51,449 nucleotides of DNA, from NCBI GenBank assembly GCA_947626865.1, contig CANQTZ010000003.1, positions 1 through 51,449 on the forward strand. Direction: 5' to 3'. This DNA is from an uncultured Clostridia bacterium. Lineage in GTDB: Bacteria > Bacillota > Clostridia > TANB77 > CAG-508. The notes under the pieces were generated by a model that saw nothing but the letters and a program-made list of their open reading frames with translations, was not told the origin of the DNA and did not search any database. The stretch's first letter is position 1; every line of letters begins with the position of its first letter. The position numbers and the translations under genes are program-made. Of this stretch, positions 41,709 through 43,985 are shown one piece after another.

Positions 41709-43676
41709 ATGAAAAAAGACGAAAAAACAAATGTAAAATTTGTAAAACAAAAAGAAAAGCTGTATGGTAGAAAGGCAAAAGGAATTACGTTGATAGCGCT
41801 TGTTATTACTATAATTGTGCTATTAATTTTAGCAGGTGTAAGTATGGCATCATTGACAGGGGAAAATGGAATTTTAACAAAGGCGACAATAGCTAAGGAA
41901 AAAACGGAGCAAGAAGGAAGTAGAGAGAAAATAGAAATGGCAGCAATGTCAAGTTTTGATGAGCATGGGAATTTTAATTCAGAAAAATTTAAAGAAGAAA
42001 TAATAAAGTATGGAGGAGAAATAGTATCAGAGGATGAAGATACAATTGTGGTAGAAGTAGATGGATATGAGGCTACAGTAGATAAAAAAACAGGAGAAAT
42101 AATAGGAGAAATAGAAAAAGCAGGAGTAAGACCAGAGTTTACAGTAGAACAAACTTTAGATAGTACAAAGAAAAAGGTAACATTAAAAGTAACAGTAACG
42201 AATGAGGTAGATAAAGTAGATAAAATAACAATAACAAACTTAGAACAAGGGACAGATTTAATGGTAACATTAAATGGAAAGATAGGAACAGCAGAAACTA
42301 CCTTAAATGGAACATATAAAATAGTAGTAACAGCAACAACAGATGGTTCTCAAAAAAGTGCAAGCAAAGTAGAAGAAGTAAATCAGATACCAGTAACATT
42401 TTCAATGAAGTATGGAAAAATAGAGGTAGTGTGGATAGATAAGGAAAATAATGTAATAAATAAACCATTAGCACCAGTATTAAGTGAGGAAATGACGCCA
42501 GTAAAATGGGAAGGCGAAGGAGATAAACCAACAGAAAAAGATATAACAAAAGATGATAGTAGTTGGTATGAATATAAGGCAGGAAGTGGAAAGAGTGATA
42601 ACTTAACAAGTAGATGGGCAAATGCAAAATATAAAGATAGTTATTTTGTATGGATACCAAGATATGCATATAGAATAACGTATTATGCAAGTCAAGATAG
42701 TGACCAAGTGACAGGATATTGTGATGCGAAAGGAATAAGAGCAGTAGGAGAAGCAGGAGAGCAAGAAAAATATAGTTTTGGAGAAGTAGATAGTGTAGAA
42801 AGTGATGGAAAAAGTTATATAGTACATCCAGCATTTAAAGATGGAACAGACAATAACTTTAAAAATGGAGAATGGGACAAAGACCTATCAGGAATATGGG
42901 TAGCAAAATATGAGATGAGTGTAAGTAGTAATTCATATAAAAGTGTACCAAATGTAGCAAGTGCAAGAAGTTTGACAGTAGATAAAATGTTTACTGAATC
43001 GCAGAATTTCGCAAAACAACAAGAAAGTCATTTAATGAAAAATAGTGAATGGGGAGCAGTAGCATATTTAACACAAAGTCAATATGGAAGAAATGGACAT
43101 GAAGTAGATATAAATAATAGTAGTAGTTATATAACTGGAAATGGAGGAGGAAGTACAAGTGCTTCATCTGCATCAAATACAACCCATGCGTACAATACAA
43201 CAGAAGGAATGAAAGCAAGTACAACAGGAAATATCTATGGAATATACGATATGTCAGGAGGAGCATGGGAAAGAACAGCAGGATATATATCGAATGGTAA
43301 TAGTAGTTTAAGTAATGGTTCAAGTATGGTAAATGAAAATACGACAGCAAATGCGGATGCATATACAGAAAAAAGTAGTAAATATGTAACCGTATATCCT
43401 TATAATTCTACTAGTGATAGTAATACAAACAATTATACAGCATATAAAGATAAAAAATATGGATATGGCGATGCAATACTAGAAACATCAACGAGCGGAA
43501 GCGGTTATAACAGCTGGTTCGACGACTACTCTACCTTCCCTTACACGAGTTATCCGTTCTTCGGGCGTGGAGGCGATTACAATGATGGTTCTTATGCAGG
43601 TCTGTTCTGTTTCGATAATACGGTTGGTGCAAGCAGTTCCCACTATTCGTTCCGTGTCGCTCTTCCGGGCGAGTAG
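41709..43676 (+). CDS. DGR target: type IV pilin-like N-terminus, Ig-like middle region, C-terminal CLec/FGE-sulfatase-like domain carrying VR
   Basis: KG|ITLIALVITIIVLLILAGVS; FVWIPRY, WVAKYE, SEWGAVAY, GIYDMSGGAWE, RGG...FRVAL. Confidence 0.9.
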   Translation: MKKDEKTNVKFVKQKEKLYGRKAKGITLIALVITIIVLLILAGVSMASLTGENGILTKATIAKEKTEQEGSREKIEMAAMSSFDEHGNFNSEKFKEEIIKYGGEIVSEDEDTIVVEVDGYEATVDKKTGEIIGEIEKAGVRPEFTVEQTLDSTKKKVTLKVTVTNEVDKVDKITITNLEQGTDLMVTLNGKIGTAETTLNGTYKIVVTATTDGSQKSASKVEEVNQIPVTFSMKYGKIEVVWIDKENNVINKPLAPVLSEEMTPVKWEGEGDKPTEKDITKDDSSWYEYKAGSGKSDNLTSRWANAKYKDSYFVWIPRYAYRITYYASQDSDQVTGYCDAKGIRAVGEAGEQEKYSFGEVDSVESDGKSYIVHPAFKDGTDNNFKNGEWDKDLSGIWVAKYEMSVSSNSYKSVPNVASARSLTVDKMFTESQNFAKQQESHLMKNSEWGAVAYLTQSQYGRNGHEVDINNSSSYITGNGGGSTSASSASNTTHAYNTTEGMKASTTGNIYGIYDMSGGAWERTAGYISNGNSSLSNGSSMVNENTTANADAYTEKSSKYVTVYPYNSTSDSNTNNYTAYKDKKYGYGDAILETSTSGSGYNSWFDDYSTFPYTSYPFFGRGGDYNDGSYAGLFCFDNTVGASSSHYSFRVALPGE

Positions 43677-43682
43677 TCACTT
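43525..43682 (+). repeat. DGR variable repeat (VR)
   Basis: 158-bp ungapped match to 43828-43985; all 17 differences lie opposite TR adenines. Confidence 0.96.
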
Positions 43683-43742
43683 TGATGTGACCTTGTTCCT
43701 TGTTCCCTTTAATCGGCACTTATTTGAAAGGGAATAAGGAAC
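43676..43742 (+). other. IMH-associated hairpins downstream of VR
   Basis: GTCAC-tttgat-GTGAC (43676-43691, not formed after TR) and a 16-bp stem GTTCCTTGTTCCCTTT/AAAGGGAATAAGGAAC (43695-43742). Confidence 0.65.
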
Positions 43743-43827
43743 TCAAATACGGGTAATACCTTATAAGGTATGGAAAAGAATTTTTGAAAGAAGGGAGTGA
43801 GACCTGAAAAATTAGGGATTAAACTGT

Positions 43828-43985
43828 ACTACTCTAACTTCCCTAACACGAGTAATCCGTTCTTCAAACGTGGAGGCAATTACAATAATGGTTCTAATGC
43901 AGGTCTGTTCTATTTCAATAATACGAATGGTACAAGCAATTCCAACAATTCGTTCCGTGTCGCTCTTCCGGGCGAGTAGTCACTT
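43828..43985 (+). ncRNA. DGR template repeat (TR)
   Basis: AAY-rich copy of VR located 303 bp downstream. Confidence 0.95.

Follow-up and report, generated by a model that had tools for sequence, protein, structure and literature searches.

The window analysed here is a stretch of 51,449 nucleotides, the whole of contig CANQTZ010000003.1 (C3) in a metagenome-assembled genome (MAG; assembly GCA_947626865.1, 1.76 Mb, 93% complete) of an uncultured Clostridia bacterium. Between a class II aminoacyl-tRNA synthetase gene and a kinase gene, it carries a diversity-generating retroelement (DGR) with a target gene, a variable repeat (VR), a template repeat (TR) as well as a reverse transcriptase (RT). 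To our knowledge, DGRs are the only natural system of targeted protein hypermutation known in prokaryotes; for the targets of cellular DGRs, we know of mostly no description of their role beyond 'membrane-anchored binding protein'.

The target gene, the VR and the TR follow one another on the plus strand and face the genes for the RT, the accessory protein Avd and a MutS-like (MSL) protein on the minus strand (Table 1). The TR and the stop codon of the RT gene are 3284 bp apart. The MSL gene lies directly upstream of avd, which in turn lies directly upstream of the RT gene; all three are encoded on the minus strand (49151-47273).

Table 1. Features of the DGR cassette in window coordinates, and structural matches to the model of the target protein in residue numbers
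Feature	Position	Strand	Evidence or remarks
XRE-type helix-turn-helix (HTH) regulator, divergent from target gene	41160..41516	-	PF01381 HTH_3, 52.8 bits
Promoter-like site, TTGAAA-17-TATACT, TG before -10	41645..41673	+	consensus scan, 10/12 matches; consensus match only
Target (variable protein) gene, 655 aa	41709..43676	+	24-aa leader, pilin-like module, immunoglobulin (Ig)-like domain, C-type lectin (CLec) domain
VR	43525-43682	+	encodes target residues 606-655 plus stop
Initiation of mutagenic homing (IMH)-like 3' end of VR	43645..43690	+	invariant G+C-rich stretch, T at 43683 (TR: C), then end of homology
16-bp hairpin/cruciform just after VR, none after TR	43695..43742	+	DNA fold -15.1 kcal/mol
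TR	43828-43985	+	non-coding; strand as for VR; 44 of 158 bases are A
Conserved structured RNA directly 3' of TR	43983..44228	+	12-sequence alignment; RNAalifold, 48 pairs in 7 helices
Terminator-like hairpin and U run, likely 3' end of TR RNA	44277..44332	+	RNA fold -17.4 kcal/mol, z -4.45
Transposase_31 copies of Rpn/YhgA type: two, both split over a pair of open reading frames (ORFs), and part of a third	44578..47298	+	PF04754 on four ORFs
DGR RT, 369 aa, intact, convergent with TR	47273..48382	-	RVT_1, 60.5 bits
Avd accessory protein	48355..48735	-	NF033474, 91.3 bits (cut-off 80); PF22296 bAvd, 79.1 bits
MSL accessory gene, 139 aa, MutS domain I only	48732..49151	-	PF01624, 55.4 bits (cut-off 20.6)
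Ribbon-helix-helix (RHH; Arc-like) regulator, divergent from MSL-avd-RT operon	49299..49646	+	PF12651, 27.9 bits
TaqVP (5vf4), solved DGR variable protein	model 259-654		Z 22.1, root-mean-square deviation 3.9, 266 aligned, 23% identity, Foldseek E 4.5e-9
Mtd	model 246-655		Z 11.3-11.7
Formylglycine-generating enzymes (FGE)	model about 300-655		Z 10.6-10.9
Ig-like sandwiches	model 138-229		Z 9-10.6

Around the target gene there is a single direct-repeat pair of this kind, 162 nt long (43525-43686 and 43828-43989) and offset by 303 bases. The sequence-only reading that preceded this work described VR and TR as aligning without gaps over 158 bp, with 17 differences in 14 codons, all of them at TR adenines, and placed the VR in the last 50 or so residues of the target. 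A recount gives the same figures, and the VR does encode the C-terminus of the 655-residue protein. By type, the substitutions are A>G (n = 10), A>T (n = 5) and A>C (n = 2). In the frame of ORF 41709-43676, all 14 codon changes are non-synonymous; 11 of the 13 AAY codons of the TR are altered in the VR, as are AAA (to GGG), TAT (to TGT) and ACA (to GCA). TR adenines fall largely at codon positions 1 or 2 (39 of 43 in the VR-coding stretch). The probability that 17 random mismatches would all lie on A is (44/158)^17 = 3.6e-10. None of the 114 non-A positions differs between TR and VR.

An eighteenth difference (C in the TR at 43986, T in the VR at 43683) is found 7 nt past the stop codon, in the IMH-like tail; homology between the repeats stops three bases further on, at 43686/43989. 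The VR tail, including this T, is also present at a second VR-like copy on contig C22. The hairpin that follows the VR has a fold z of -4.97, with none of 200 shuffled sequences folding equally well, and a sequence resembling it is found 3' of a VR-like end on contig C75. A difference between the IMH of the VR and the IMH* of the TR, together with an inverted repeat after the VR only, is characteristic of DGRs, and the function of both elements here is putative. In the accessible part of the paper on DGR architectures PMC5758913, an inverted repeat after the VR is the usual target-side element.

The sequence-only reading called a DGR from the repeats, with no RT seen. That identification stands: an intact RT, Avd and a MutS-domain-I gene are encoded on the other strand, 3.3 kb downstream. 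When the entire genome was searched for protein families, RVT_1 matched three times, with the best match inside the window (47543-48154, minus strand). The RT contains the motifs IGNYTSQ and YMDD; motifs of the forms [ILV]GxxxSQ and YxDD are hallmarks of DGR-clade RTs. The RT is assigned to the DGR clade. It also matches phrog_1423, 'Reverse transcriptase' (E 8e-110), and residues 1-365 of its 369 can be aligned with the RTs of relatives. Models for group II intron, retron and Drt-type RTs score under their cut-offs.

No HRDC match was found among the cassette ORFs scanned. With a small MutS-like gene and avd but no HRDC domain, the gene content identifies the element as an MSL-type DGR (Architecture D). 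The MSL gene is kept upstream of avd at six loci in related genomes (L016-L020 and L022). In the part of Wu et al. that was available (2018, NAR 46:11, PMC5758913), an MSL accessory gene is reported for 16 of 372 DGRs (Architecture D), always with avd.

The target gene has an AGGAGG motif about 10 nt upstream of its ATG at 41709. Its product was modelled with AlphaFold2 (AF2) on 57 homologues (predicted local distance difference test, pLDDT, 86.6; predicted TM-score, pTM, 0.80). Three parts can be recognised in the model: a pilin-like alpha1 helix with a four-stranded sheet (about 26-140), an Ig-like domain (about 138-229) and a TaqVP-like CLec domain (about 259-654). At least 7749 of 8000 candidates scored are homologues at E <= 0.001, most of them without Pfam annotation. 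The Pfam FGE-sulfatase family scores 19.3 bits on the target, under its cut-off of 23.3. The best structural match by far is TaqVP (Table 1), which bears out the earlier expectation of a CLec-fold variable domain; in the model, the C-terminal domain has a TaqVP-like C-type lectin fold with the VR at its C-terminus, as is found in DGR variable proteins.

Across the 57 homologues, the residues whose TR codon has A at position 1 or 2 are hypervariable: entropy averages 3.07 bits there, compared with 1.23 bits elsewhere (Mann-Whitney p 5.6e-8; the homologues are kin and not independent). Scaffold residues F617, R620, G621, G622, G631, F633, F648 and R649 are near-invariant in the same set.

The sequence directly 3' of the TR is also conserved. 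The 250 nt past the TR are kept in 11 of 12 aligned loci, while L045 is without the second block. A long-range helix pairs 43983-43991, which comprises the last bases of the TR and the first ones beyond it, with 44129-44137. Inside this helix lie two hairpins with strong covariation (43996-44013 and 44024-44046); three further helices extend to 44228. In the alignment, 92.3% of cells form a standard pair, compared with 82.0 +/- 0.9% when the 3' letters are shuffled, and 28 of the 48 pairs have compensatory changes, compared with 12.4 +/- 2.1 in shuffles; none of 500 shuffles reaches either value. As a control, partners were slid by 1-3 columns; pairing then falls to 38-51% of cells. A search of 43400-44700 against Rfam gave only sub-threshold matches (RT-14, 25.3 bits, gathering 48.1; RT-9, 24.7 bits, gathering 46.1), and the RNA is filed under no Rfam family. 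We read it as the spacer part of the DGR RNA, and call it spacer-like. Handa et al. are said to have found in 2018 that the spacer of the DGR RNA of the Bordetella phage element is needed for priming.

The N-terminus of the target consists of a 24-residue basic leader ending in Gly25, followed by ITLIALVITIIVLLILAGVS and then by the conserved TGENGIL. It shows the sequence pattern of type IV pilin (class III) signal peptides, in which a short basic leader with a terminal Gly precedes about 20 hydrophobic residues (Pfam N_methyl / IPR012902). In the model, this N-terminal module has helices at 28-50 and 55-80 and four strands at 104-137 (pLDDT 81.8). The first 35 residues recur in 37 ORFs of the 1.76-Mb genome, where they are near-identical (K/R-G-ITLIALVITIIVLLILA..TGENGIL); these ORFs range from 137 to 670 aa and have many different C-terminal parts. 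All 37 keep Gly at -1 and a basic leader. A second member of the family within the window (7343-8671) has an intein/Hint N-terminal match at the margin of its cut-off (TIGR01445, 24.6 bits, cut-off 24.5).

Members of this family are genetically associated with type IV pilus machinery. On contig C69, five tandem family genes of 148-171 aa with leaders of 5-6 residues lie downstream of a gene for a 540-aa PilN-domain protein (E 9.6e-4) and two genes for small membrane proteins, and upstream of a prepilin peptidase gene (A24_N_bact, 109.7 bits). Pfam N_methyl is over its cut-off in three of the five small paralogues (22.0-22.5 bits). Genes for PilB, PilT and PilC are found on contig C118 and a second Peptidase_A24 match on contig C48. 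Canonical GFxxxE pilins were not found in the 93% complete genome by a strict regular expression, a pattern search which is no proof of absence, and a relaxed expression returned one unconvincing ORF, on contig C7. A small ORF on C118 that neither expression catches has Glu at +5 after a leader ending in GNTAI. The first 144 residues of the target resemble clusters of Bacillota proteins of 129-172 aa; in 12 of 30 cluster matches, a minority of members carry N_methyl (20% in the example listed).

Taken together, the locus is likely to be a chromosomal MSL-type DGR of a spore-forming gut Clostridium that diversifies the CLec domain of a modular type IV pilin-like protein. The following mechanism is proposed. 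An RNA of the TR and the structured spacer-like region (43828 to about 44330) would be transcribed from the plus strand. The RT and Avd, whose genes are convergent with it, would copy this RNA into cDNA and misincorporate opposite template adenines, helped by the MutS-domain-I protein. The cDNA would then replace the VR, guided by the IMH-like tail and by the hairpin that is present after the VR and not after the TR. Up to 22 codons of the CLec domain (those with A at position 1 or 2) could be recoded in this way; 14 differ at present. The target would be cleaved by a prepilin peptidase and incorporated into pili, and the pilin-like protein would most likely present the diversifiable ligand-binding domain on the pilus or at its tip. 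The analysis shows the parts and their integrity, the adenine-only pattern, the folds as models and a layout conserved in relatives; the transcription units, ongoing retrohoming, peptidase cleavage, incorporation into pili and the ligand are inferred.

A number of observations weigh against this interpretation. The MAG has an estimated contamination of 8% and several of its genes are split; contigs C3, C69 and C118 are tied to one organism by binning and by the shared N-terminal sequence. About 2.7 kb of Rpn-type pseudogenes separate the TR unit from the RT operon, and this insertion could disturb expression. An exact 37-base scan of metagenome contigs for the VR/TR tail gave no matches. The remaining points concern the N-terminus. 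Glu at +5 is typical of type IV pilins, with exceptions that include some minor pilins and archaeal pilins. The target has Ala at +5, as do 36 of the 37 family ORFs, while the other has Ser; Ala is near-invariant at this position in the 57 homologues as well. Pfam N_methyl scores 13.9 bits on the target, under the cut-off of 21.2. When the small paralogues and target residues 1-144 were searched with the NCBIfam pilin models, none matched at E 0.01 (best GspG, E 0.011). In a structure search with the N-terminal module, GspK (Z 5.0) and PilA5 (Z 4.8) do not rank above RelE-like folds (Z 5.4); in VIA-align, a competence pilin has Z 4.0, and the GspK, PilA5 and RelE-like scores are all in the range that is commonly reached. 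The target gene itself lies outside any pilus operon.

Several of these points would be explained if the N-terminal helix were a mere membrane anchor and the target a membrane-tethered, DGR-diversified surface receptor that is never polymerised into a pilus; surveys name targets of this sort 'membrane-bound targets'. Ala in place of Glu5, the sub-threshold N_methyl score, fold matches to GspK and PilA5 that are no better than those to RelE-like proteins, and the location of most of the 37 paralogues outside pilus operons are all in line with such a receptor. Arguing the other way, the same 35-residue N-terminus heads five pilin-sized genes between PilN-domain and prepilin peptidase genes, the Gly at -1 and the basic leader are kept throughout the family, and the genome encodes PilB, PilT and PilC yet has no convincing canonical pilin in the pattern scans. 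On balance, a receptor of this kind is possible but unlikely. The description of the target as a pilin-like adhesin, which had been made from its prepilin-like N-terminus, is therefore retained in part: the association of this N-terminus with a tandem array beside a prepilin peptidase gene upholds it, while the absence of Glu5, the N_methyl score and the ranking of the pilin folds do not. Since Glu5 is missing, we use the term 'pilin-like' rather than 'a type IV pilin'. In our reading, the target works like a modular type IV pilin sensu Raynaud et al., though it is no canonical member of that class.

The Rpn insertion bears on whether the element is active. It begins at 44578, past both the structured RNA unit and the terminator-like hairpin, and its copies have a 12-nt-period repeat rich in Glu/Gly/Lys/Arg codons near the C-terminus. 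They separate the TR RNA unit from the 3' end of the RT gene and do not belong to the DGR. Four relatives (L018, L020, L021 and L022) have TR-to-RT gaps of 219-343 bp and a fifth (L017) has one of 1669 bp, compared with the 3284 bp filled by Rpn pseudogenes here. The adenine pattern could in principle date from past retrohoming in a cassette that is now a frozen relic, for example one uncoupled or silenced by the Rpn insertions. The enlarged gap, a degraded DGR on contig C2 of the same genome, and VR-like copies on C22 and C75 with many non-A differences would fit such a relic. It is nevertheless improbable: RT, Avd and MSL are uninterrupted, with motifs intact and the RT alignable over nearly its full length; the insertion lies outside the spacer-like RNA, the terminator, the IMH-like tail and the hairpin, all of which are intact; and none of the 114 non-A positions has drifted. 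In addition, PMC5758913 states, in the part accessible, that TR and RT may lie on different strands, an arrangement in which they must act in trans anyway. Recent retrohoming, proposed in the sequence-only reading, fits the locus because the ORFs and motifs are intact, the RNA unit is untouched and non-A drift is zero, and on the sequence we judge current activity of the DGR to be somewhat probable.

RT matches at E <= 1e-20 are found in 37 of 61 genomes searched (this one counted) and, within the genus, in 27 of 36 genomes other than this one. Eight of the best RT loci (L016-L023) were compared in their surroundings. The same convergent order, target-VR-TR facing RT-avd, is found at five of the eight (L017, L018, L020, L021 and L022), four of which have the MSL gene beyond avd; no MSL match was found at the L021 locus. 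In these five relatives, 23 of 26, 10 of 11, 16 of 17, 13 of 15 and 6 of 7 mismatches fall on TR adenines. The three others differ: L016 has the cassette genes and no detectable TR/VR pair, L019 has an inverted pair with merely 12 of 23 mismatches at A, and L023, of a different family, has two RTs in tandem and lacks a biased pair. An Rpn-driven inversion was considered as the cause of the opposed RT and TR and rejected, as the convergent layout occurs in relatives without Rpn copies.

The flanking genes are shared as well. Both L016 and L017 retain DUF6809 followed by an XRE-type HTH gene divergent from the target gene, and an RHH gene divergent from MSL; L017 also retains the aminoacyl-tRNA synthetase (81% identity). 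Because the convergent layout and the flanking genes recur in relatives, we take the cassette to be a chromosomal island that is maintained vertically, and the Rpn copies to have been inserted later, in this species. The HTH gene is in the same position with 67% identity in L016 and L017, and the RHH gene is 70-75% identical in L016-L018. In the window, these two genes bracket the cassette, each divergent from one of its two transcription units. Both are candidate regulators of target and RT expression.

The sequence-only reading took the host to be cellular and Gram-positive and saw no phage genes in the window; all three points are borne out, the last as regards phage structural and lysis genes. 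The cassette lies between housekeeping genes, with synteny that is shared with relatives. Window genes include SpoVAD (362.8 bits), DpaA, SpoIVB, PNPase, QueA, Era, RecO and a MurC-like gene, of which the three spore proteins fit a Gram-positive host. The records that hold the closest family loci are titled uncultured Clostridium or Clostridia and stem from the guts of rabbit, mouse, chicken and human. Five sequencing runs are listed as sharing words with the window, each with at most 0.24 of the words; four of them are from rabbit gut, and no RNA run is among those listed.

If the DGR belonged to a prophage, the target would be a phage receptor-binding protein. The RT and Avd do match PHROG families, regulators of XRE and Arc type flank the cassette and, in the accessible portion of the literature, many Firmicutes DGRs are phage-borne. 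A PHROGs scan of 27 ORFs, however, found no capsid, tail, terminase, portal, integrase or lysis family. Matches were limited to the RT, Avd, the MutS-like gene (a family of unknown function), two regulators and a kinase-like ORF, and the target has no PHROG match. With an aminoacyl-tRNA synthetase, a Mur ligase, SpoIVB and a kinase as neighbours, and with the order synthetase-DUF6809-HTH-target kept in relatives, a prophage origin is highly improbable.

Further traces of DGRs are found elsewhere in the genome. The copy on C22 (1882-2043), at the C-terminus of a paralogous gene, has 83% identity to the C3 TR, with 18 of 28 mismatches at A and a tail identical to that of the VR; it is a former or occasional second target. 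The C-terminus of a paralogue on C75 (275-405) is VR-like, with 69% identity and a different tail. Sharing of the TR with VR-like ends on C75 and C25 was rejected on account of this identity and tail. A second DGR is present on contig C19 (1053-4357; L034). It is co-directional, its RT has the motifs IGNLTAQ and YVDD, and its TR (2255-2389) and VR (3102-3236), on the minus strand, have 18 of 19 mismatches at A. It adjoins another pilin-like gene, and VR-like copies are found on C41 (9 of 10 mismatches at A), C4 and C121. The pilin-like ORF of four paralogues stops at the same ...YADLAVGS.R.KW, with the VR in a separate ORF downstream; this may be a gene that has been split, a target made of two genes or a site of recoding. 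The degraded DGR on C2 (26000-29300; L035) comprises a MutS-like ORF, an Avd match under its cut-off (42.2 bits) and a 192-aa RT fragment on the other strand; it adjoins a pilin-like gene of 394 aa.

In species genomes, 601 relatives of the target family were confirmed and 80 of these were kept for analysis. An adenine-biased TR/VR pair is present at 7 of the 80 loci and an RT match at 8, which exceeds 150 aa at 7 of these; the majority of the family thus does not adjoin a DGR. A wider scheme, in which this genus of gut Clostridia uses one type IV pilus machine to display 37 interchangeable Glu5-less modular pilin-like proteins while at least two DGRs (on C3 and C19) and decayed ones continuously re-specify several of the binding domains, is offered tentatively, as something we hold to be rather doubtful at present. 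Such a scheme would equip a monoderm with a programmable repertoire of pilus-tip adhesins and set Glu5-less type IV filaments apart as a subclass of their own.

Several other features of the assembly were observed. The tgt gene is in two ORFs with an unreadable middle (13983-15112), spoIVB is in two overlapping ORFs (35201-36434) and pilC on C118 is split into two ORFs (3965-5312). Such splits reflect either real decay or frameshifts introduced in error during assembly, and they bear on what is called intact or broken in this MAG. A 51-nt-period repeat is common to both ends of the contig (787-961 and 51375-51447) and may explain the assembly break there. A 35-nt-period repeat flanks era-recO-hpf in inverted orientation (18244-18339, 21373-21433 and 21503-21570). 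Thirteen tandem 21-nt units (6382-6780) lie in a 222-aa ORF without family match (6371-7039). On the plus strand, 22696-35134 holds 15 consecutive ORFs that are nearly devoid of family matches. It has weak hints of a SAF domain like that of CpaB (E 2e-7), of an ATPase like TadA/VirB11 (E 1.8e-7) and of ComGF (E 0.004), and four paralogous small ORFs starting MENASKAL.. (29473, 30277, 31303 and 31780). It may be a very divergent Tad-like pilus or secretion locus.

If the N-terminal helix of this very large target family serves as a pilin stem, adhesins presented on pili would make up a common class of DGR targets in gut Firmicutes. This would parallel the recent finding on type V pili in Bacteroides and provide a testable model for attachment adaptation of uncultured Clostridia in the gut. 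As an MSL-type DGR that is compact and apparently complete, and whose structured RNA is well defined, the locus is suited to reconstitution.

The mechanism and the cassette type are known; the reading of the target is moderately novel. In the portions of the DGR and type IV pilus literature that were accessible, no description of a type IV pilin-like stem on a DGR target was found; supplements of surveys may list the family. The nearest precedent is one sentence in the available text of PMC11661182, which names a 'GspG-type pilin' domain among the scarce domains that hold a VR. In the part of the preprint by Roux et al. that was available, such targets are called membrane-anchored and the words pilus or pili are absent.

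The element resembles the MSL-containing DGRs of PMC5758913, so far as that text was available, in its RT, Avd, small MutS-domain-I protein, adenine-specific repeat pair, IMH/IMH* tails and inverted repeat after the VR. It differs from them in its pilin-like target, of a kind that the same sections do not describe, in the convergent layout, which here is a conserved state across a genus of gut Clostridia, and in the Rpn elements between TR and RT. The C-terminal domain (259-654), with the VR at its very C-terminus, is like that of TaqVP (5vf4), Mtd (1yu0-1yu4) and FGE-type CLec variable proteins; unlike in those proteins, it is preceded by an Ig-like domain and a pilin-like module.

Modular type IV pilins, in the part of bioRxiv 10.1101/2021.01.27.428410 that could be consulted, comprise more than 1,200 proteins with 264 architectures, and PilB and PilC of Streptococcus sanguinis are argued to sit at the pilus tip. 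The S. sanguinis proteins carry the IPR012902 motif, whereas the target family here has Ala at +5. The effector module here is a DGR-diversified CLec domain, an architecture of which that part makes no mention. As in the Bacteroides type V pili described in a preprint that was available in part, a cellular gut DGR would here be aimed at the adhesive end of a pilus-associated protein. The two systems differ in phylum and target family, and in the filament itself: type V with strand exchange in Bacteroides, type IV with an alpha1 helix in the reading proposed here.

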